Assembly (NCBI GenBank): GCA_042216675.1
Contig: JBDGTS010000043.1
Coordinates: forward strand, 1-35,707
Source of the DNA: Halobacteriaceae archaeon
Lineage (GTDB): Archaea > Halobacteriota > Halobacteria > Halobacteriales > Halobacteriaceae
DNA length: 35,707 nucleotides
Reading direction: 5' to 3'
Shown: piece by piece, positions 3 to 10,770 of the stretch
Layout of the letters: each line of letters starts with the position of its first letter
How positions within the stretch are numbered: position 1 is the stretch's first letter
Made by a program: the position numbers and the translations under genes
The notes under the pieces: model-generated
What the model saw: only the letters and a program-made list of their open reading frames with translations
Databases searched by the model: none
Told to the model about the DNA's origin: nothing

Positions 3-686
3 AACCCGGCGGGCATCTGGGTCGAACCGATTCAGGGCGAGGGCGGCGTCGTCGTGCCCCCTGAGGGGTTCCTCTCGGGCCTGCGCGACATCGCGGACGA
101 ACACGACGTTCCCCTCGTCGTCGACGAGGTGCAGGCCGGGTTCGGGCGAACGGGCGAGTGGTTCGCCTGCGAACACGAGGACGTGACGCCCGACGTCATG
201 CCCGTCGCGAAAGGTGCGGGCGGCATCGGAATGCCGCTCTCGGCCACCATCTACGACTCGGACCTCGACTTCGAACCGGCGGACCACTCGGGCACCTTCC
301 GTGGCTACCTGCCGGCGATGGAGGCCTGCATCCGCACCATCGACTACGTCGAGGACCACGACTTGCTGGCCCACGCGAGTGACCTCGGCGCGTACATTCA
401 GGAGCGTCTGCACACCGTCGCCGACGACGTGCCGGAAGTCGCGGACGTGCGCGGCCGGGGCCTCTTCGTCGGCGCCGAGTTCCGCGACGACGGCGAGGCG
501 GCGCCGGACCTCGTAGACGAGATTCGCCGCGAGTGCATGCGGCGGGGCGTCCTGACGTGGGGCGGGGGGCGAGAGGCCAACGTCCTCCGCCTGATGCCGC
601 CGCTGGTGATGACCCGCGAACAGGCCGCCACCGGCCTCGACGTGGTGACGGACGTGATTCGGTCCGTCTCGGAGACGGATTCCTGA
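3..686 (+). CDS. Class III PLP-dependent aminotransferase (diaminobutyrate/4-aminobutyrate transaminase-like), 5'-truncated by the window edge
   Basis: Frame is open from base 3: EPIQGEGG, VVDEVQAGFGRTG, PLP lysine in PDVMPVAKG, HSGTFRG, VRGRGL, LRLMPPL. Confidence 0.9.
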   Translation, partial: NPAGIWVEPIQGEGGVVVPPEGFLSGLRDIADEHDVPLVVDEVQAGFGRTGEWFACEHEDVTPDVMPVAKGAGGIGMPLSATIYDSDLDFEPADHSGTFRGYLPAMEACIRTIDYVEDHDLLAHASDLGAYIQERLHTVADDVPEVADVRGRGLFVGAEFRDDGEAAPDLVDEIRRECMRRGVLTWGGGREANVLRLMPPLVMTREQAATGLDVVTDVIRSVSETDS

Positions 687-763
687 CCGGAACCCGCCGG
701 AGGCGCCGCGACGGCGGTGTGTCGTCCACCAGAGTTATTACTCGGGGATTCGCACTCCGTTCC

Positions 764-1222
764 ATGGAACGCGCACTTGTCGTCGTGGACGACACTGACG
801 AGCATCGGGAGCTGCTTCGCGAGGCCGGCGAACTCGCCGCCGGCGTCGACGCCGAACTCGTTTTGCTGACGACGCTCACCGCCGAAGAGTTCGCCGAGGA
901 CGCGGCGACCATCGAGCGAATCGCGGAGATGGAACACACCGGCTACGAGGAGGACGCCGCCATCGAGGCGGCCCGGAACTTCGCCCGCGACACCGCAGAG
1001 GAGGAACTGGGGGGACTCGGTGTCTCCTTCGAGGCCATCGGACGCGTCATCGAGGAGAACGAACACGCCGACGCCGTCCTCGACACCGCCGCGGAGCGCG
1101 ACTGCGACCACGTGTTCATCACGGGCCGCCGCCGCTCCCCCACCGGGAAGGCCATCTTCGGTGACGCCGCACAGCGCGTCATCCTCAACTTCGACGGCCT
1201 CGTGACCGTCAAGACGTCGTAA
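764..1222 (+). CDS. Universal stress protein (UspA family)
   Basis: ATG at 764 (MERALVVVD...). C-terminal Usp motif DHVFITGRRRSPTGKAIFGDAAQRVILN. Confidence 0.9.
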   Translation: MERALVVVDDTDEHRELLREAGELAAGVDAELVLLTTLTAEEFAEDAATIERIAEMEHTGYEEDAAIEAARNFARDTAEEELGGLGVSFEAIGRVIEENEHADAVLDTAAERDCDHVFITGRRRSPTGKAIFGDAAQRVILNFDGLVTVKTS

Positions 1223-2092
1223 TCAGAACTCGATTCGGGATCGGAACTCGGGGAGACCGTTCACGGCTGGCGTGAACGAGAACAGCGCACCGGCGCCCTC
1301 TCCTTCCACGTCACGCGAATAGCCAGCCGTCGCTGTGGGCGCGAACGCCGTCCCGTAGTCCTCGCCGCCGAACGCGACGCTGGCGACTTTTCTGGCGGGG
1401 AAGCGCACCCGTGCGTCTTCGCTCCCGTCGGGCGCGAACCGGACGACTGAGTGGCCGTTCCACCGCGCCGACCAGACGTAGCCGTCCTCGTCGACGGTGA
1501 GGCCGTCCGGTTTGCCGGGGCCGCCGACGGTGGTGACGAACGGCCGCCGGTTGCGCAGGTCGCCCGTCTCGCGCACGAAGTCGAAGGCCCACACCGTCTC
1601 AGCGTTCGTTTCGGTGAAGTAAAAGCGGTTGTTGTCGGGCGAGAAGCCCATCCCGTTGGCCGTCGCCACGCCCTCGATGAGCACGTCGAACGTGCCGTCC
1701 GTCTCGAAGCGGTAGAGCCGTCCGCGACTGCCGCCCTCGGCCATCGTGCCGGCGTAGACGCGTCCCTCGGGACCCGCGATGACGTCGTTGAAGCGCGACC
1801 CCTCTTCCTCGGGGATGCCGGAGAGAATCACGTCGCCGAGGCCGTCCTCCTCGTTCCACAGTTGCACTTCGCCGTCGTCCATGAACAACAGGAGGTCGCC
1901 GTCTGCCTGAATCGTGAAGCCGCCGATGCGTCGGTCGTCCTCGTGGACTCGCTCGTGGTCCCCCGTCTCGGGGTCGTAGCGGAAGATGCGCCCGTTCGGG
2001 ATGTCGAGCCAGTACACCACTTCCTCGTCGGGGTGCCAGAGAACGCCCTCGCCCGTCTCGGTGCCGTAGTCGGCGGCGCGTGTCACGTCCAT
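1223..2092 (-). CDS. SMP-30/gluconolactonase/LRE family lactonase (sugar-acid lactonase-like)
   Basis: GEGVLW, RFNDV, NGMGFSPD, PDGLTVDEDG beta-propeller metal-ligand motifs. TATA-like AATTTAAG at 2124-2117 on the minus strand. Confidence 0.9.
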   Translation of the reverse strand: MDVTRAADYGTETGEGVLWHPDEEVVYWLDIPNGRIFRYDPETGDHERVHEDDRRIGGFTIQADGDLLLFMDDGEVQLWNEEDGLGDVILSGIPEEEGSRFNDVIAGPEGRVYAGTMAEGGSRGRLYRFETDGTFDVLIEGVATANGMGFSPDNNRFYFTETNAETVWAFDFVRETGDLRNRRPFVTTVGGPGKPDGLTVDEDGYVWSARWNGHSVVRFAPDGSEDARVRFPARKVASVAFGGEDYGTAFAPTATAGYSRDVEGEGAGALFSFTPAVNGLPEFRSRIEF

Positions 2093-2141: not shown

Positions 2142-3257
2142 CTATTCGCCGCCGCTCCCGTAGATGGGGCCTTCGTCCTGTCCGTTGGGTTCGGGGTCGA
2201 AGATGTCGGTCTGTTTGTCGCCGAGGACGTCGATTTCGGCGAGGAGTCCCTTGCGGGCGACCCGACTGAGCGCGTGGTCCACGAGTTTGATGCGCTCGGG
2301 GACGGGGCACTCCATCGTCCCGACCATGCAGGACCCCGGCGGGACCTTCATCGTCTGGACGTTCTTCTCCGTCGGCCCTTCGAAGGCGCCGTCGCGGTAG
2401 CCCTTCGCCCAGACGTTGCCGATGGGGTGGAAGTTCGAGGAGACGTTCGGACCGCCGTCGACCATGAACACCCGGACGGAGTCACCGACCGAGACCTCCT
2501 TCGGCCCGTAGCGGGCCGCCGCGTAGGCGTACTTCTCGCCGTTGAGGAGGACGTACGTTGGATCCTCGGCCTTCATCGCCTCCATGTCGAAGGCGTGGTG
2601 CCCCTTCGCGCCCGTCGGCTGCTTCGTGTAGACCTCGTGCTGGCCGAAGTAGAACTCGTGGTCGACCTCGGGAAGGCCCTCTTTGGGTTCGACCACGATC
2701 ATCCCGAACATGCCACTGGAGATGTGGTAGTCGAGGTTCGGGACCGCACAGTGGTAGATGTACGCGCCGGGGTACGTCGCCTTGAACTTCTCGCTGTTGG
2801 ACTCGCCCGGGGCCGCGGTCGTGGCGACGCTGCCGCCACCCGTCCCGTAGATGGCGTGCATGTCAACGTTGTGCGGCATCTTGTTGTCGGGGAGGTTCTT
2901 CAGCGTGAACGAGACGGTGTCCCCCTGCCGAACGCGGAGCATCGGGCCGGGGACAGTCCCCCCGAAGGTCATGTAATCGAAGGTGACGCCGGGTTCGATT
3001 TCCGCGGTCACCTCCTCGACTTCGAGCGTGATGTCGTGGTGTTTCGGCTCGTCGCGGTCGATGGGCCCGGGCATGTCCGCGGGGTCACGCGCGACTTGGT
3101 CGACGTCGGTCTGCTTGGTCGTCGCCTGTTGCTGTTGCTCGCTGGGGGTGGGGTCCTCGTCGGCGTTCGACGGTGCGTTCGCGGAACAGCCCGCCACCGC
3201 GGCCGTCCCACCGATGCCCAGTGCCTGTAGCGCGCGACGACGAGTGCTTTCGAACAT
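2142..3257 (-). CDS. nirK: Copper-containing nitrite reductase, Tat-exported lipoprotein
   Basis: Type 1/type 2 Cu motifs PHNVDMHA, YHCAVPNLDYHISSGM, SSNFHPIG, LVDHAL. N-terminal TRRRAL twin-arginine and AVAGC lipobox. Confidence 0.96.
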   Translation of the reverse strand: MFESTRRRALQALGIGGTAAVAGCSANAPSNADEDPTPSEQQQQATTKQTDVDQVARDPADMPGPIDRDEPKHHDITLEVEEVTAEIEPGVTFDYMTFGGTVPGPMLRVRQGDTVSFTLKNLPDNKMPHNVDMHAIYGTGGGSVATTAAPGESNSEKFKATYPGAYIYHCAVPNLDYHISSGMFGMIVVEPKEGLPEVDHEFYFGQHEVYTKQPTGAKGHHAFDMEAMKAEDPTYVLLNGEKYAYAAARYGPKEVSVGDSVRVFMVDGGPNVSSNFHPIGNVWAKGYRDGAFEGPTEKNVQTMKVPPGSCMVGTMECPVPERIKLVDHALSRVARKGLLAEIDVLGDKQTDIFDPEPNGQDEGPIYGSGGE

Positions 3258-3406: not shown

Positions 3407-3418
3407 CGAACGTGTTCG
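3407..3418. promoter_or_regulatory. Palindromic operator CGAACGTGTTCG upstream of halocyanin
   Basis: Flanked as CCGAAC-GT-GTTCGG. Lies 38 nt before the in-frame GTG at 3457. Confidence 0.75.
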
Positions 3419-3924: not shown

Positions 3925-4154
3925 CGACGTTCCTCACCGAGCGCCCCGGCGTTCACCACGGGTAACGAACATTCCGGTCCGCAGAGGGCGTCTTTCTGAA
4001 AGCGTACCACCGCGTTCGCCGTGCGACCGTCCACCGACACTGGTGAGCGACTGCGCCGGGACCTGGTGGCTGCTTCTGCCGCTCTCCGGAGCGAAGTCAA
4101 CTGCCGGCGCCTCGTGCGCTCCTTCGGGAAGCCCCACCCTCGGACCGCAAACGG

Positions 4155-4430
4155 TCACGTGACGAACAGCGAGTAGAGAATCGTCGCGAAGCCGACCAGC
4201 AGGAACACGCTCTCGACGGCCAACGCGACGATCGGGTCCATCCGCGTTATCTGGTCGATACCGCCGCCGATTGCGGAGCCGAGCGTGACGACCCCGAACC
4301 CGATAGCCAGCGCTCGGAGCGCCGGCGACCCGGTGCGGCGGTACGCCCGGACGGCGTAGAACGTGATCAGACCTCCCGTGACGAACGTCAGCGTCTTGAG
4401 AACGACGATTGCTGTGAGGGCGTGGCTCAT
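4155..4430 (-). CDS. Small three-helix membrane protein of the type paired with haloarchaeal winged-helix regulators
   Basis: 91 aa with three hydrophobic segments and AYRRTGSPALRALAIGF. ATGA overlap with the upstream HTH gene. Confidence 0.75.
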   Translation of the reverse strand: MSHALTAIVVLKTLTFVTGGLITFYAVRAYRRTGSPALRALAIGFGVVTLGSAIGGGIDQITRMDPIVALAVESVFLLVGFATILYSLFVT

Positions 4431-4804
4431 GTTTCGTGGCGCACCTCCGACCAGAGGTCGGCCAGCCGTTCTTCGGGACTCTCAGTGGGTCGCTCGACGG
4501 CCACCCGAAACGCCCGGTCCTCGTCGAGTGCGACCTGCACTTCCTCGAAGTCCACCTCGTAGCGGGTGGTGTGCTGGCCGTCAGTCCTGATTTCGGTCAG
4601 TTCTCCGACGAGCGAGGCGTCGGAGAGCAGTTCGAGCTTCCGATACGTCGTGGACAGCGGAACGTCACAGACGTCGGACAGTTCGCTCGCGGTCATCGGC
4701 TCCTCCATCGCGCGGACGAACTCGCGGCACGTCGGGTCGTCGAGCGCGTCCAAGACGTCCTGTAGGTCCGGCGCCTCATCGTCCGCGAACGGGTCACGTA
4801 CCAT
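4427..4804 (-). CDS. ArsR-like winged helix-turn-helix transcription regulator
   Basis: LDALDDPTCR...MTASELSDVCDVPLSTTYRKLELL wHTH pattern. Confidence 0.85.
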   Translation of the reverse strand: MVRDPFADDEAPDLQDVLDALDDPTCREFVRAMEEPMTASELSDVCDVPLSTTYRKLELLSDASLVGELTEIRTDGQHTTRYEVDFEEVQVALDEDRAFRVAVERPTESPEERLADLWSEVRHET

Positions 4805-4892: not shown

Positions 4893-5537
4893 TTATTTGA
4901 GTGTAGTGTTGTCGTCCGCGTCGAGGAACTCCGTCACGATGCGGGATTCTGCCCGATGAAGCGTCTCGCTACAGGTAGACTTGGCGATGCCCACCTCCTC
5001 CGCGAGTTCGGTCAGCGAGCACTCCCGTGGCGTGTCGTAGTAGCCGTGGTCGGCCGCGGCGCGGAGGAGGCGCTCCTGTCGGTCCGTGAGAAGCGGATCC
5101 GGTTCGATGCGTTCGCGGATGTGCTCGACGGTGAAGGAGACGCCGAAGGCGTCCAACTGGTCCCCCAGCGCCGAGAGGCTGTCACGCGGCGCCGTCACGT
5201 CCCACGTGGCTTCGCCACCCTCGATGTCGAACGGCATCTCAAGCGGGATGCCCGAGTCCTGCACCGCTAACAGCAACAGCGGCGTCGTCGTCTCGAACTG
5301 GATGAGGGCGGTGTCCTCGTGGCGGTGCAACAGGTCGAGCGCCGTCACCTCCTCCCGGTCGTGGACCGCCGCGACGACGTCTGGGAGGTCCGGCCCCGAG
5401 AGCTCAGCGTGCCCGACGCCGGTCCCCCCGTCCGCGAGCGCCGCGAGGATGCGGAACCGGACCGACGGGTACTCCCGCGACACGTCGCCGATCCACGCCC
5501 CCTCCGGTATGGTGAGGGTCAGTCGCGCCCGTGGCAT
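4893..5537 (-). CDS. Bat-type (HTH_10) transcription regulator with an N-terminal sensor-like domain
   Basis: C-terminal LTDRQERLLRAAADHGYYDTPRECSLTELAEEVGIAKSTCSETLHRAE is the HTH_10 signature. Confidence 0.9.
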   Translation of the reverse strand: MPRARLTLTIPEGAWIGDVSREYPSVRFRILAALADGGTGVGHAELSGPDLPDVVAAVHDREEVTALDLLHRHEDTALIQFETTTPLLLLAVQDSGIPLEMPFDIEGGEATWDVTAPRDSLSALGDQLDAFGVSFTVEHIRERIEPDPLLTDRQERLLRAAADHGYYDTPRECSLTELAEEVGIAKSTCSETLHRAESRIVTEFLDADDNTTLK

Positions 5538-5614: not shown

Positions 5615-5626
5615 CGAACATGTTAC
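5615..5626. promoter_or_regulatory. Degenerate operator copy CGAACATGTTAC upstream of the HTH_10 regulator
   Basis: 10/12 match to CGAACATGTTCG. Overlaps the DUF2249 stop codon. Confidence 0.5.
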
Positions 5627-5880
5627 CTCTCCCAGATGGCAGTCACGACGGCGTCGGCCGTCTCGACCGTCTCGTACTCGTAGCCTCGGTCGATTAGTTT
5701 GGGGTAGAGGTGCTGGGGCGCCCGGTCGTTCAACTGGACGAGGACCGTGCCCGGGTCCATCTCCTCGACGCGTTCGAGCGTCTCGGCCAGCGGTTCCGGT
5801 GGCGGCAACTCCCGCACGTCGAGTCGCGTGCGCGTGCCGTCCGGCGCGTCCGTGTCGTCCACCGCACTCTCGACTGACAT
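5623..5880 (-). CDS. DUF2249 domain protein (SirA/TusA-like fold, no persulfide cysteine)
   Basis: ATG at 5880. LDVRELPPPEPLAETLE...NDRAPQHLYPKL is a typical DUF2249 pattern. Confidence 0.85.
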   Translation of the reverse strand: MSVESAVDDTDAPDGTRTRLDVRELPPPEPLAETLERVEEMDPGTVLVQLNDRAPQHLYPKLIDRGYEYETVETADAVVTAIWER

Positions 5881-5918
5881 GTGCGACCGTTCGGGCCGCC
5901 ACCGGGGGAGGGTTCTGC

Positions 5919-5930
5919 CGAACATGTTCG
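5919..5930. promoter_or_regulatory. Perfect 12-bp palindrome CGAACATGTTCG between divergent DUF2249 and cysK
   Basis: Perfect inverted repeat 38 nt upstream of the DUF2249 ATG. Confidence 0.8.
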
Positions 5931-6950: not shown

Positions 6951-6962
6951 CGAACACGTTCG
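6951..6962. promoter_or_regulatory. Palindromic operator CGAACACGTTCG upstream of the CGCGG/radical SAM operon
   Basis: Begins immediately after the cysK stop and ends 38 nt before ATG 7001. Confidence 0.78.
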
Positions 6963-7000: not shown

Positions 7001-7294
7001 ATGACCGCGCTCGCAACCGACGACCCCGTGACCGACCGCGTCCACGAGAACTCGTGGTCGGCGAACCTCGAAGAGCCACGACACGCCGACGACCGGGCAC
7101 TCGTCGTCGCACAAGCCATCGACGCCGTCCGGCACACGGCGCCGGGGCACCACGTCAACCTCGTGAGCCACGGCGACCACGGCCACCCCGAGGAGTACCT
7201 CTTCGCGGCCCTCGACGCGGCCTTCGAGGAGGCCGAGTACGAGTTCGTCGAGCGCTGTGGCTGTGGCGGCTACGTCACCCGCGTCCACCGATGA
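7001..7294 (+). CDS. CGCGG-family small protein (His-rich, C-terminal CGCGG motif), usually annotated as a putative rSAM-modified peptide
   Basis: NSWSANLE, HHVNLVSHGDHGHP, RCGCGGYVTRV. ATGA overlap with the radical SAM gene. Confidence 0.85.
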   Translation: MTALATDDPVTDRVHENSWSANLEEPRHADDRALVVAQAIDAVRHTAPGHHVNLVSHGDHGHPEEYLFAALDAAFEEAEYEFVERCGCGGYVTRVHR

Positions 7295-8358
7295 TGGGGG
7301 CCATCGACACGGACGAGCGACCGGTCGTCCTCGTCTGGGAGGTGACCCAAGCCTGCGAACTGGCCTGCGAGCACTGCCGGGCCGACGCGCAACCCGACCG
7401 GCACCCCGACGAACTGTCGACGGCCGAGGGGAAGGCGCTCCTGCGCGAGGCGGCCCAGTTCGGCGACGATCAGTTGGTCGTCCTCTCGGGAGGTGACCCG
7501 CTAGTCCGCGACGACTTGCCCGAACTCGTCGAGTACGGCGTGGACCGCGGCCTCCAGATGACGCTCACCCCGAGTGGAACGGCACACCTCACGCCCGAGC
7601 GAATCCGCGAACTCGCCGACGCGGGCCTGCGACGCCTGGCGCTCAGCATCGACGGCGCAACCGCCGACTCTCACGACTCGTTTCGCGGCGAGGAGTGCTT
7701 CGCGGACACGCTGGCGGCCGCCCGCGCCGCGAACGAGGCGGGCATTCCGGTGCAGATCAACACCACCGTCTGTGCGTCCACCGCCGAGGACCTGCCCGGC
7801 ATCCGCACCCTCGTCTCTGACCTCGACGCGGTGCTGTGGTCCGTCTTCTTCCTCGTGCCAATCGGCCGCGGGACGGCGCTCGACCCCGTGTCGCCGGCGC
7901 GCGCCGAGCGCATCGCCTCGTGGCTCTGCTCGGTGCGCGAGAGCGAGGACTTCGGCATCAAGACGACGGAGGCCCCGTTCTTCCGGCGCGTCGCGGCCCA
8001 ACGCGGCGAGGGCGGTCCCGGCGCGCGCCGCCCCGGAATAACGGCCGGCGACGGCTTCGCGTTCGTGAGCCACGTCGGCGAGGTGTACCCCTCCGGCTTC
8101 CTCCCCGAGTCCGCCGGCACCGTGCGCGGGGAGAGCGTCGTCGACATCTACCGGGACAGCGACCTGTTCGAATCGCTTCGGGACCCCGACGCCCTCACCG
8201 GGAAGTGTGGCGCCTGCGAGTACCGGGGTCTCTGTGGCGGGAGTCGCTCGCGGGCTTACGCCTGCACGGGTGACCCCCTCGCGAGCGACCCGCTCTGTGC
8301 CTACGTCCCCGAGTCCTACGACGGCCCCATCCCGAGACAGGAGGTGGCGCGATCGTGA
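7291..8358 (+). CDS. ahbD: Radical SAM/SPASM protein of the NirJ/AhbD-like group (TIGR04053-like), probable anaerobic coproheme decarboxylase/heme synthase
   Basis: WEVTQACELACEHCRA (CxxxCxxC), SGGDPL, SIDG, C-terminal CGACEYRGLCGGSRSRAY...DPLC. The ahbD label rests on my recollection of the nirK-adjacent radical SAM of Haloferax and is less certain than the family call. Confidence 0.7.
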   Translation: MMGAIDTDERPVVLVWEVTQACELACEHCRADAQPDRHPDELSTAEGKALLREAAQFGDDQLVVLSGGDPLVRDDLPELVEYGVDRGLQMTLTPSGTAHLTPERIRELADAGLRRLALSIDGATADSHDSFRGEECFADTLAAARAANEAGIPVQINTTVCASTAEDLPGIRTLVSDLDAVLWSVFFLVPIGRGTALDPVSPARAERIASWLCSVRESEDFGIKTTEAPFFRRVAAQRGEGGPGARRPGITAGDGFAFVSHVGEVYPSGFLPESAGTVRGESVVDIYRDSDLFESLRDPDALTGKCGACEYRGLCGGSRSRAYACTGDPLASDPLCAYVPESYDGPIPRQEVARS

Positions 8359-8615
8359 GCGCCCTCGAAACAGAGGAATCCGCGCTCGCGCGGCGGATTC
8401 GGGACCGCGGCGAGGAGATTCGACGCGAGGAGCTGTCGCAGGCGCTCTCGAAACTCGACGACCTGACGCCCGCCCAGCGACGGGCCGTCGAAGAGATGAC
8501 GGAGAACGTCGTGGACGCGCTTCTGACCCCGCCGGCGGAAGCGATTCGGGACGCCGAGGACCCCGAGACGCTGGCCGCGGCGCGGGCCGTGTTCGACCCG
8601 GAGAGCCGACACTGA
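8355..8615 (+). CDS. Stand-alone glutamyl-tRNA reductase (HemA) C-terminal dimerisation-domain protein
   Basis: EEIRREELSQALSKL..LTPAQRRAVEEMTENVVDALLTPP...IRDA....AARAVFDPE matches the GlutR_dimer helical pattern. GTGA overlap with the radical SAM stop. Confidence 0.75.
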   Translation: MSALETEESALARRIRDRGEEIRREELSQALSKLDDLTPAQRRAVEEMTENVVDALLTPPAEAIRDAEDPETLAAARAVFDPESRH

Positions 8616-8644: not shown

Positions 8645-9361
8645 ATGGCCGCTATCAGGACCGAGGGGTTGGCGAAGACGTACGGAGACCTCAGAGCGCT
8701 CGACGGCCTCGATGTGGCAGTGGAGCGCGGCGAACTGTTCGGCTTCCTCGGCCCGAACGGTGCGGGCAAGACGACCACGATTCGGATTCTCACCGGCCAA
8801 CTCCGCCCGGACGCCGGCGAGGCGTCGGTGCTGGGCGTCGACCCGGTGGCCGAACCCGTCGCAGTGCGCGAGAAAATCGGCGTCCTGCCCGAACGTGAGT
8901 CGCCGCCGGCGTTCATGACGCCCCGGGAGTACTTCGAGTTCGTCGGCACGGTGCGCGGGATGGGCGACGAAACAATCGCGTCCCGCGTCGAGACGTGGGC
9001 CGACAGGCTCGACTTCGGCGCGAAACTCGACACGCTCTCGACGGACCTCTCCCGGGGCCAACAGCAGAAGGTGATGATAGCGCAGGCGTTCCTCCACGAC
9101 CCCGACGCGGTGTTCATCGACGAACCGTTGGCGAACCTCGACCCAATCGTGCAGGAACGAGTCAAGGCGTTCCTGCGGGAGTACGTGGCCGAGGACAACG
9201 CCGCGTTCATCTCGACGCACGACATCGGCGTCGCCGAGGAAATCTGTGACCGCGTCGGCGTCGTCACCGAGGGGGAACTCATCGCGGACCGCGACCCGTC
9301 GGCGCTCGGCCCAGACGAGTCGCTGTTGGACCTGTTCTTACACGACGTGGAGGGGTCGTGA
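8645..9361 (+). CDS. ABC transporter ATP-binding protein (exporter type)
   Basis: Walker A GPNGAGKTT, signature LSRGQQQK, Walker B VFIDE, H-loop STH. Confidence 0.93.
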   Translation: MAAIRTEGLAKTYGDLRALDGLDVAVERGELFGFLGPNGAGKTTTIRILTGQLRPDAGEASVLGVDPVAEPVAVREKIGVLPERESPPAFMTPREYFEFVGTVRGMGDETIASRVETWADRLDFGAKLDTLSTDLSRGQQQKVMIAQAFLHDPDAVFIDEPLANLDPIVQERVKAFLREYVAEDNAAFISTHDIGVAEEICDRVGVVTEGELIADRDPSALGPDESLLDLFLHDVEGS

Positions 9362-10770
9362 TGGGCGTCACCCGCACCGTCTTCGCGGCGATGGTGCGCG
9401 AGGAGTGGCGCCTCCACGCGGACCTGTTCGGCGGCCGGCGCTTCGCCGCGTTTCCGCTCGTCGTCCTCGCCGTCGGCGCAGCGACGGTGGCGGCGCTGGT
9501 GGAGACGGGCACGCCCGCGGGGCAGGTGGTGGCCGGCTTCCACGCCCTCGTCTTCGTCTTCGGCCTCCATACGGGGTCGCTGGGCTTCGTCGGGCGGGAC
9601 GCGCTCAGAGGCGTCTTGGAGGAGATGACGCTCATCATCTCCTCGGCGCGGACGCTCCCCATCTCCCAGCGCCGCCTCTTCGCCGTCTTCCTCGTGAAGG
9701 ACGCCTGCTACTACGCGGCGCTGTTCTTGCTCCCCCTGTCGCTCGCGTTCGCGCCGGCGCTGTCGCTCGCCCGACTCCCCTTGCTCTGGCTTTCGACGGC
9801 CGTGACGTTCACCTTCGGCGTCGTCGTCACGTTCGCCGCCATCGCGCTCTCGACGCGGGGACTGTCCGGCCGACTGCTCCTCCTCGGTGCGGCGGCGGCG
9901 CTCGGCCTCGGGTGGGCCGCGGGCCTCGACCCGGTGGGTGCGACGCCGTACGCGCTCTACGCGGCGCCGCTCTCGACCGGCGCGGCCGTCGCCGTCCTCG
10001 CGGTGCCGGCGCTCGGCGCGTTCGGCGTCCTCGCCTTCGACACCAGTTACGTCCGCCCGGCCCGGACCGGCGAGAACGGCTTCGGACGCTGGCAGAACCG
10101 CCTGCCCGGCGGGGACCCACTCGTCGCGAAGAGCCTCCTCGACGTGGCGCGGAGCGGTGGCGGGTTCGGGAAGGTGCTGTTCTCCGCGGGCGTCCTGTTC
10201 GCCGTCAGCGCCGGGCTGGTGGGCCTCGTGGAGTCCATCACCGGCGTCGAACCGTCGTTTCCGGTGTCTCTCGGGGCGATTCTCGGGCTGACGGGGTTCA
10301 CGACGTACAACTGGCTCACGCAGTTCGACGGCCCGGACACCTACGCGACGCTCCCTGTCTCGACGGCGGCGGTGTTCCAAGCGAAGTTCCGGGCGTTCCT
10401 CGTCCTCGGGCCGCCCGCGGCGCTTGGCTTCTACGCGCTGGCGGCGGCGTGGCGCGGCGGTGCGGCCGGCGAACTGCTCGCCGGCGCGGCGCTGGTGGTC
10501 GGTTTCGTGGTCTATCTGTTCGGCCTGACCGTCGCGCTCTCGGGTCTGAGGCCGAACGAGTTCCTGTTCGACACGGCGCTGTTCGCGGCGTTCGGCCTCG
10601 GCGTGGCGGTGCCGCTGGTGCCCGTCCTCGTCGTCGGTTTCGTCCTCGCGCCCTACGAGGTGGCGACGCTCGGCGCACTCGTGGCGGTCGGAGTCGCCGC
10701 CGCGGCGGCGGGCGTTTTCCTCTATCGACGCGGGATTCCGCGCTGGGAGCGCCGCTATCGGGAGGGGTAG
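9361..10770 (+). CDS. Multi-pass membrane protein, probable ABC exporter permease
   Basis: More than 10 hydrophobic helices. Two halves each contain a TLP(I/V)S motif. Overlaps the ATPase stop (TGATG). Confidence 0.8.
   Translation: MGVTRTVFAAMVREEWRLHADLFGGRRFAAFPLVVLAVGAATVAALVETGTPAGQVVAGFHALVFVFGLHTGSLGFVGRDALRGVLEEMTLIISSARTLPISQRRLFAVFLVKDACYYAALFLLPLSLAFAPALSLARLPLLWLSTAVTFTFGVVVTFAAIALSTRGLSGRLLLLGAAAALGLGWAAGLDPVGATPYALYAAPLSTGAAVAVLAVPALGAFGVLAFDTSYVRPARTGENGFGRWQNRLPGGDPLVAKSLLDVARSGGGFGKVLFSAGVLFAVSAGLVGLVESITGVEPSFPVSLGAILGLTGFTTYNWLTQFDGPDTYATLPVSTAAVFQAKFRAFLVLGPPAALGFYALAAAWRGGAAGELLAGAALVVGFVVYLFGLTVALSGLRPNEFLFDTALFAAFGLGVAVPLVPVLVVGFVLAPYEVATLGALVAVGVAAAAAGVFLYRRGIPRWERRYREG

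Follow-up and report, generated by a model that had tools for sequence, protein, structure and literature searches.

A putative anaerobically switched AhbD operon with a CGCGG-family protein and a free-standing HemA dimerisation domain in a member of the Halobacteriaceae

In Haloferax volcanii, the gene for the oxygen-independent heme synthase AhbD (HVO_2144) is located between nirK (HVO_2141) and norB (HVO_2147), and the promoters of ahbD, nirK and nor carry a CGAA-X4-TTCG palindrome (PMC5746218). According to the same study, an HVO_2144 deletion mutant did not grow by denitrification or by dimethyl sulfoxide (DMSO) respiration, and protoheme rescued it completely for DMSO respiration and partially for denitrification. 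HVO_2144 is 42 % identical to AhbD of Methanosarcina barkeri, and chdC was reported in nearly all haloarchaea with ahbD additionally in two-thirds of them (Pfeiffer and Dyall-Smith, PMC8305020). Here we describe a related locus at positions 7001-8615 of a 35,707-nt stretch of DNA from a Halobacteriaceae archaeon (contig JBDGTS010000043.1, assembly GCA_042216675.1; this whole stretch is called the window). It consists of three genes, here A, B and C, which encode a small protein of the CGCGG family, an AhbD-type radical S-adenosylmethionine (rSAM) enzyme and a stand-alone paralog of the dimerisation domain of HemA (glutamyl-tRNA reductase, GluTR), respectively. The best explanation of the locus as a whole is probably an anaerobically switched, AhbD-centred operon with CGCGG and HemA-domain helpers. 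The ahbD of Haloferax has the same promoter palindrome and the same neighbours (nirK, DUF2249 and halocyanin genes), whereas in the window ahbD lies between two small genes that are translationally coupled to it.

The open reading frames (ORFs) of the three genes lie on the plus strand and overlap. Gene A (7001-7294, 97 aa) and gene B (7291-8358, 355 aa) are joined by ATGA (7291-7294), in which the ATG of B occupies 7291-7293 and the TGA of A 7292-7294. Gene B and gene C (8355-8615, 86 aa, GTG start) are joined by GTGA (8355-8358), with the GTG of C at 8355-8357 and the TGA of B at 8356-8358. The G+C content at third codon positions (GC3) of A (0.90) and C (0.85) is in the range typical for real genes in the window. 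The palindrome CGAACACGTTCG (6951-6962, CGAA-N4-TTCG, no strand assigned) was found by motif scan and agrees with the published motif. It is a presumed NarO-type activator site and sits directly past the stop codon of cysK, 38 nt ahead of the ATG of A. The gap between the cysK stop and A is 50 nt in total (cysK: TIGR01139, 372.6 bits vs 350.95). An earlier sequence-only reading of this DNA had described three genes joined by ATGA and GTGA overlaps behind one palindrome, and the ORFs and the motif scan bear this out.

The CGAA-N4-TTCG palindrome occurred five times in the window compared with 1.14 expected, and none of 100 shuffles reached five. The extended form CGAAC-N2-GTTCG was present at three of the five sites, all in promoter gaps (nirK/halocyanin, DUF2249/cysK and before A). 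The palindrome was missing from a general repeat listing because its arms have just 5 nt. When the 220 nt upstream of CGCGG and rSAM genes from other loci were scanned, 58 of 70 CGCGG genes had the palindrome, usually some 50-60 nt ahead of the start, and so did 32 of 89 rSAM genes. The same 1.58 Mb of sequence gave a background of 0.059 per 220 nt, and some species are possibly represented in both locus sets. Its association with CGCGG genes was independent of whether the gene adjoins ahbD. In members of the NarO regulon, CGAA-N4-TTCG lies just upstream of the core promoter, and this is the arrangement at 6951-6962. The motif is given as CGAAYATDKTYG in an RNA-seq study of H. mediterranei, which also describes regulators resembling bacterioopsin activators, as well as DUF2249 genes, within the nirK-nor island (PMC11218638); the terms CGCGG, radical SAM and ahbD do not occur in the main text of that paper. 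These sequence data support the assignment of the A-B-C operon to the denitrification/anaerobic gene set, as the sequence-only reading had proposed.

The product of gene B had its highest score with TIGR04053 (464.3 bits, cut-off 395), followed by the AhbD profile TIGR04545 (309), NirJ2 (214), AhbC (162), MftC (135) and PqqE (125). Like HVO_2144 and M. barkeri AhbD, it carries the CX3CX2C radical SAM motif and a C-terminal CX2CX5CX20C motif. The former (C22, C26 and C29) was invariant in 37 aligned sequences and aligned with the cysteines of 14 canonical AhbDs; the latter (C306, C309, C315 and C336, all invariant) corresponds to AuxII, which has been defined as CX2CX5CX20-38C (PMC10452713). 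Unlike methanogen AhbD, B is without the AuxI cysteines. Columns that hold Cys in 14/14 canonical AhbDs read E227, I/V250, A257, S268 and S318 in 13/13 haloarchaeal rows. E227, S268 and S318 stand in place of the AuxI cysteines, and such a replacement by Glu/Ser has been described for AhbDs of archaea other than methanogens (PMC10452713). When 37 rows (haloarchaeal, canonical AhbD and AhbC-like sequences) were placed in a quick tree, B and 12 haloarchaeal orthologs formed one clade with a support of 99, on a long branch (1.69) and sister to the 14 canonical AhbDs with respect to the AhbC-like rows. B is 68 % identical to the rSAM enzyme of a Haloferax sp. locus (L081) in the same clade, and the Haloferax loci have the order nirK-DUF2249-ahbD-halocyanin, as published. 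The cysteine pattern and the profile scores thus support B as an AhbD-type enzyme of the non-methanogen archaeal type and not a peptide maturase, in agreement with the sequence-only reading. The AhbD part of the system is already known from HVO_2144 (PMC5746218).

Two side observations were made on other rSAM enzymes. Two genomes of a separate GTDB family (G004 and G010, genus g2; loci L152 and L153) have two TIGR04053 paralogs, the second with 446 bits, and no CGCGG gene. In locus L141, a haloarchaeal AhbC-like enzyme (524-1744, minus strand) matched TIGR04347, 'pseudo-SAM/SPASM', with 729.9 bits, followed by NirJ1 and AhbC at about 440 bits. The adjoining gene (L141:1744-2055, minus strand) encodes an 'Htur_1727 family rSAM-partnered candidate RiPP' (TIGR04031, 116.7 bits), where RiPP stands for ribosomally synthesised and post-translationally modified peptide, and a C-like gene is 2 kb away. 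This pair parallels CGCGG/AhbD, so both RiPP labels may have been given to partners of heme enzymes.

Gene C encodes a true paralog of the HemA dimerisation domain, which was also the identity given to it in the sequence-only reading. The C protein matched PF00745 with 51.7 bits (gathering score 22.9), and a second member of its family, in locus L140, with 35.5 bits. In comparison with residues 339-408 of the HemA encoded in the same genome, 28 of 70 residues (40 %) were identical (E-value 2e-12). The AlphaFold2 (AF2) model of C (pLDDT, the predicted local distance difference test score, 83.8) has three helices at 3-33, 39-66 and 70-80, like the GluTR C-terminal domain (PDB 4yvq, 5che). The top five Foldseek rows were all GluTR C-terminal regions, the best being 4yvq_A (TM score 0.68, root mean square deviation 2.2, E-value 0.062). 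Unlike GluTR, C is free-standing, has no catalytic or NADPH domain, and is encoded after ahbD under a presumed anaerobic promoter.

The distribution of C was analyzed in 301 sampled genomes of the class and in 80 named AhbD loci, using a hidden Markov model (HMM) built from neighbouring ORFs. A word-index search for relatives of C was misleading, as it returned three only, and most C-like genes escaped a tblastn search in which C was the sole query. A C-like gene was found directly after the rSAM gene in 12 of the 80 loci, within 2.5 kb in three more and elsewhere in the locus in two. The genera with C directly after the rSAM gene are Halarchaeum, Haloplanus, Halococcus, Halomicrococcus, Haloarchaeobius, Halorussus and Halopelagius, in addition to one Halobacteriaceae metagenome-assembled genome, and B-C overlaps were also seen in loci L034, L041, L057, L059 and L076. 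All 301 genomes had a HemA match and 105 had a second GlutR_dimer-like match. Among 25 stand-alone C-like matches listed, 16 were directly after an rSAM gene (six GTDB families) and three within 2.5 kb. The second match was present in 100 of 216 AhbD-positive genomes vs 5 of 85 AhbD-negative genomes (odds ratio 13.8, from raw counts that ignore kinship). Members of the C family shared 20-38 % identity between genera. We considered C as a decaying hemA fragment and rejected this, as intact copies with high GC3 exist in six families and the coupling is conserved. Among the papers listed in literature searches on GlutR_dimer/PF00745, none dealt with a stand-alone archaeal domain, judged by title or abstract, and no paper linking C to ahbD was found. 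The recurring link between C and ahbD is the new part of the finding. The sequence-only reading had put the operon forward as its best candidate for an undescribed system; since AhbD is already published (PMC5746218), this does not apply to the system as a whole.

Further arrangements of C-like genes were noted. In a 95 %-complete genome without TIGR04053, a CGCGG gene is followed directly by a C-like gene (L008, G188:C1:2285130-2288378), which looks like A-B-C minus ahbD. In locus L138, a DUF2249 gene and a C-like gene (3998-4270 and 4267-4581, both minus strand) overlap by 4 nt and form an operon in a nirK cluster away from ahbD. Halomicrococcus and three genomes that belong to a single genus have the order ahbD, C, protoporphyrinogen-oxidase-family gene. 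A gene of this oxidase family (TIGR00562, 153.9 bits vs 97.85) follows ahbD or ahbD-C in some haloarchaea, at L137:4261-5526, L140:4258-5553 and L143:2579-3919 and also in L033, L043, L045, L053 and L082; it was counted in 5 of the 80 named loci. PgoX is reported as missing from H. volcanii (PMC5746218).

The A protein is by score a full member of the family named 'CGCGG family putative rSAM-modified RiPP protein' (TIGR03995/PF26005), with 132.5 bits against a TIGR03995 cut-off of 70 and the C-terminus ERCGCGGYVTRVHR. It does not seem to behave as the functional label implies, as it is folded by prediction, has an invariant C-terminus and often occurs without an rSAM enzyme. When A was aligned with 40 sequences, which were picked among the 120 matches listed of 585 found, identities were 61-88 % and 28 columns were invariant, the C-terminus included. 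The family was present in 212 of the 301 genomes (207 above the cut-off) and 59 of 81 genera, and just 119 clusters among 1.84 billion representatives matched it. The AF2 model (pLDDT 83.3) has a beta-alpha-beta-alpha-beta-beta order with CGCGG inside a beta-hairpin, a predicted two-layer fold with a borderline resemblance to TusA/SirA/YeeD, and the top VIA-align rows were 8j4c_B (Z 9.2), 3hz7 (Z 8.8) and 3lvj_C (Z 8.2) of this group. The TusA/SirA family signature is a Cys-Pro motif and the TusA cysteine is located at the start of helix 1, whereas the cysteines of A are in the beta3-beta4 hairpin. A Pfam scan of A gave no family (TusA PF01206 included), and a search of PDB sequences with the CGCGG family profile gave no matches. 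The nearest non-self Atlas clusters were DUF2249 (0.79 and 0.78), which is a lead only; the two families also share gene neighbourhoods. We regard the CGCGG protein as likely to be small and folded, with a shape like that of TusA, and not a peptide precursor, and the sequence-only reading was probably right to doubt the RiPP annotation. Searches of the literature returned nothing on TIGR04053 or TIGR03995, no occurrence of 'CGCGG family' or 'rSAM target protein', and, judged by title or abstract, no paper about the CGCGG family among those listed for CGCGG and radical SAM.

A non-acidic, divergent (bacterial) branch of the CGCGG family exists, with one member from Anaerobacillus. It retains WSxNLE, VN(L/I)(V/I)T and CGCGG, and the features universal in the family are the WSxNLE strand and the Cys-Gly-Cys hairpin. 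An AhbD-type rSAM gene directly followed the CGCGG gene in 16 of 42 haloarchaeon-like metagenome loci vs none of 38 divergent ones, one of which had a 46 %-identical rSAM 2.5 kb away. Of the divergent loci, 19 were 6 kb or longer, and the neighbours in these were a membrane protein (13), DUF59/FeS_assembly_P (12), DUF2249 (8), hemerythrin (2) and RIC/ScdA (1), and in divergent locus L177 a Crp/Fnr regulator gene neighbours the CGCGG gene. The most conserved neighbours of the CGCGG gene are accessory genes of the nitric oxide (NO)/anoxia response and not AhbD. Our conclusion is that A belongs to the NO/anoxia gene set as a folded accessory protein and that its position ahead of ahbD is secondary.

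Several other proteins recur beside CGCGG genes. The membrane protein (about 410-437 aa) is the commonest kept neighbour in both branches and occurs in 34 of the 80 haloarchaeal AhbD loci in addition to the 13 divergent loci (examples L138:4626-5939, L169:3394-4635 and 7064-8374, and L200:6225-7532). It has no Pfam or NCBIfam match. The Atlas calls it 'putative Cbb3-type cytochrome c oxidase subunit I', and in one cluster 13 % carries the COX1 assignment. A protein of about 180-215 aa with an HLPDPGPFL motif, also without a Pfam or NCBIfam match, was found in 33 of the 80 AhbD loci and 19 of the 42 halo-like metagenome loci (examples L138:2832-3365 on the minus strand, L136:85-735, L137:1460-2077 and L140:1573-2127). 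Protein P0183 (220 aa, a single JGI metagenome cluster) appears to be a genuine fusion of CGCGG with Cupin_2, and a cupin gene often follows the DUF2249 gene in haloarchaeal clusters (L138, L139, L142 and L143); together they hint at similar roles of CGCGG and DUF2249. Three other fusions, P0002 (partial DUF2249 + CGCGG), P0142 (CGCGG + rSAM) and P0160 (membrane protein + CGCGG), were rejected. They have garbled linkers and were taken as gene-call or frameshift products, which are evidence of adjacency only.

In the 301 genomes, CGCGG and the TIGR04053 enzyme (above cut-off in 213) were found as follows: both in 190, CGCGG only in 22, rSAM only in 26 and neither in 63 (kinship ignored). The rSAM gene was directly downstream in 9 of 30 CGCGG loci. 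Within the 80 AhbD loci, the CGCGG gene was directly upstream of ahbD in 17, after it in two, elsewhere in the locus in 21 and not within 10 kb in 40. Other gene orders (B-A, B-C-HTH-A, A-B-x-C, and A several kb distant) were observed. Two Haloferax chromosomal loci have the CGCGG gene at least 4.7 kb from ahbD and no C-like gene within 10 kb. The tight A-B-C trio was present in only 6 of the 80 named AhbD loci and is thus a minority arrangement, which weakens the three-gene module proposed in the sequence-only reading.

Four other explanations were weighed. The database name of A implies a RiPP or protein-modification cassette, in which a SPASM-type rSAM enzyme would modify the Cys-rich CGCGG C-terminus with the third gene as an accessory. 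The translational coupling of A and B, their adjacency in 17/80 AhbD and 9/30 CGCGG loci, their joint presence in 190/301 genomes and the tendency of SPASM enzymes to act on Cys-containing peptides (PMC10452713) fit this, and P0142 reads as a CGCGG-rSAM fusion, although its junction appears frameshifted. However, the ortholog of B has a heme-rescued anaerobic phenotype (PMC5746218), and B is without AuxI cluster cysteines. A RiPP precursor would be found only with its maturase, as an unstructured peptide with a variable core, and beside a conserved protease or exporter. Instead, 22 of 212 CGCGG-positive genomes had no TIGR04053 match, none of the 38 divergent loci had an AhbD-type rSAM gene right after A, the model of A is confidently folded with CGCGG in a beta-hairpin and an invariant C-terminus in 40 sequences, and the ABC permease downstream of the operon is conserved in none of the 80 loci. 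We therefore consider a RiPP cassette very improbable. It is less improbable, but still unlikely, that CGCGG is a dedicated partner of AhbD, that is, a small carrier of the redox or iron-sulfur type which accepts the electron set free in each decarboxylation and replaces the missing AuxI cluster. No external electron acceptor of AhbD is known, AuxI is important in M. barkeri for the second of the decarboxylations (PMC10452713), the AuxI cysteines are absent from haloarchaeal AhbDs, and the two genes strongly co-occur (both in 190 genomes, one only in 22 and 26) and are frequently coupled. On the other hand, AuxI is also missing in other non-methanogen AhbDs (PMC10452713), whereas the named CGCGG relatives among the matches listed are all haloarchaeal, other non-methanogen lineages not having been searched. 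The bacterial branch has no AhbD gene directly downstream, the CGCGG gene of Haloferax is 4.7 kb from ahbD behind other genes, and half of the AhbD loci (40/80) have none within 10 kb.

The remaining two explanations concern C and the module itself, and each of them is rather unlikely. C could be unrelated to HemA function, its three helices having been recruited as a general-purpose dimeriser or adaptor that serves AhbD or another protein of the anaerobic regulon (DUF2249, CGCGG). The coupling of C to B with overlaps in further loci, the DUF2249-C operon of L138 and the pairing of A with C where the genome has no rSAM gene are compatible with such a role, as is its fast evolution between genera, which is frequent in adaptors. 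However, C retains 40 % identity to the HemA domain of its own genome and lies between two heme-pathway genes in some genera. Alternatively, the three genes would share an anaerobic promoter and nothing more, their adjacency being one of many shuffled arrangements in denitrification islands. This is in line with the highly variable gene order, the tight trio at 6/80 loci and the occurrence of all three families apart from each other. Against it, B and C adjoin each other, overlapping or a short gap apart, in six GTDB families, and C-like genes are nearly restricted to AhbD-positive genomes (100/216 vs 5/85).

The AhbD-centred operon that we favour may work as follows. If the palindrome is a haloarchaeal NarO-type activator site, all three genes would be made together once oxygen is depleted, and the 4-nt overlaps would couple the translation of A, B and C. 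AhbD would then carry out the oxygen-independent conversion of iron-coproporphyrin III to heme b, a role that is taken from other species. It very likely supplies heme when the aerobic ChdC, which is also encoded in this genome (NF008913, 258.6 bits vs 253) along with a full-length HemA (428 aa), cannot work. CGCGG would most plausibly handle a metal or redox centre, carried by its Cys-Gly-Cys hairpin, in the NO/anoxia set (DUF2249, oxidase-like membrane protein, DUF59 and hemerythrin), being placed before ahbD only in some haloarchaea; we regard this role as about evenly balanced between right and wrong. As the HemA pairing domain without the catalytic part, C would act by binding HemA or a partner that recognises that domain. 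More tentatively, this binding might allow entry into the tetrapyrrole pathway, at its first committed step, to be adjusted once the anaerobic final step is turned on. The tuning of tetrapyrrole flux proposed in the sequence-only reading would be a plausible link of the first and last heme steps, with the HemA-domain paralog as its one basis. In the widest form of this reading, which we hold to be rather speculative, GluTR pairing domains that stand alone would make up a broader, so far undescribed class with C as an archaeal representative. Its members would dock to HemA or compete for the binders of the HemA pairing domain, and C, made along with AhbD from the anaerobic promoter, would couple the first and last heme steps. 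In the same view, CGCGG would be a new redox or metal carrier with a Cys-Gly-Cys motif and a TusA-like shape, which during anoxia or NO stress would serve AhbD as well as the oxidase-like membrane enzyme. What the sequence itself establishes are the earlier steps, namely the anaerobic-type palindrome in a compact promoter, the signals for translational coupling, the characters of B that mark it as AhbD and the domain to which C belongs.

Several points weigh against this reading. The co-transcription of A-B-C is presumed, and its anaerobic induction is taken from H. volcanii and H. mediterranei. A search of sequencing runs listed no RNA run that contains this DNA and only two metagenome DNA runs that do, which are possibly its source. 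B falls below the NCBI cut-off for AhbD (TIGR04545, 309 vs 500 bits), a cut-off that was passed by just 21 of 101 genomes of the phylum and 1 of 14 named control genomes. The rSAM tree, a check proposed in the sequence-only reading, placed B beside canonical AhbD with respect to AhbC-like rows; as it covers these groups and the haloarchaeal clade, the comparison of B with peptide maturases relies on HMM scores only. The orthology of B to the genetically tested HVO_2144 is indirect, through synteny and the Haloferax sp. locus and not through the HVO_2144 sequence. No AhbC (TIGR04546 or TIGR04347) above the cut-off was found in this 80 %-complete assembly. C is not directly after the rSAM gene in 68 of the 80 AhbD loci and nowhere in the locus in 63, and of the 25 stand-alone matches listed, five were in nirK/DUF2249 clusters and one was after CGCGG in a genome without the rSAM gene. 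The TusA-like fold of A is borderline, as Z values of 8-9 are near the usual best Z of unmatched models; Foldseek of the A model against PDB gave no match at an E-value of 0.001 or lower, and hhalign of A with DUF2249 gave a probability of 0.2 %, that is, no profile relation. The His cluster of the haloarchaeal proteins does not persist in the bacterial branch. A His/Cys metal site is therefore not common to the whole family, which weakens the metal or heme binding that the sequence-only reading had suggested. A complex prediction of AhbD with C scored 0.00 in both runs and is evidence in neither direction.

The neighbouring genes of the window were annotated as well. Upstream of A, the copper nitrite reductase gene nirK (2142-3257, minus strand; TIGR02376, 376.9 bits vs 296.3) is present; the sequence-only description of the operon as beside nirK is right in a loose sense, with 3.7 kb and six genes in between. 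The palindrome CGAACGTGTTCG (3407-3418, no strand assigned) was found by motif scan in the divergent nirK/halocyanin promoter region. A DUF2249 gene (5623-5925, minus strand; PF10006, 60.9 bits) has its own palindrome at 5919-5930, and DUF2249 occurs in 29 of the 80 AhbD loci. The HTH_10/BAT-type regulator at 4893-5537 (minus strand; PF04967, 71.3 bits) is a candidate NarO-like activator, with homologs in 36 of the 80 loci. An HTH_20 regulator gene and a DUF7521 membrane protein gene (4155-4430 and 4427-4804, both minus strand) overlap by 4 nt and recur near ahbD in 23 and 11 of the 80 loci, respectively. Downstream of the operon, genes for an ABC ATPase (8645-9361) and a permease (9358-10770; 470 aa, no Pfam match) begin 30 nt past C, and no terminator-like site was found in the gap between C and the ATPase gene. 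This pair is poorly kept beside ahbD, with the permease in 0/80 loci and the ATPase in 12/80 at only about 30 % identity. A scan of the window for bacterial promoters and terminators gave no sites, as expected for an archaeon.

How the flux into the tetrapyrrole pathway is set when heme synthesis switches from the aerobic to the anaerobic route is poorly understood, and a small HemA-derived protein that would be made together with the last anaerobic enzyme bears on this question. In plants, FLU, a negative regulator, docks on the dimerisation domain of GluTR (PMC4726326). If C does dock to HemA and couples the two steps, microbes would have a form of control comparable to that of plant GluTR by FLU. 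The label 'CGCGG family rSAM-modified RiPP protein' is probably a mislabel, and 'Htur_1727 candidate RiPP' beside an AhbC-like enzyme may be another; both labels have spread into genome mining for archaeal natural products. CGCGG, DUF2249 and the oxidase-like membrane protein are a conserved and unexplained set in the denitrification and NO-response islands of archaea and bacteria.

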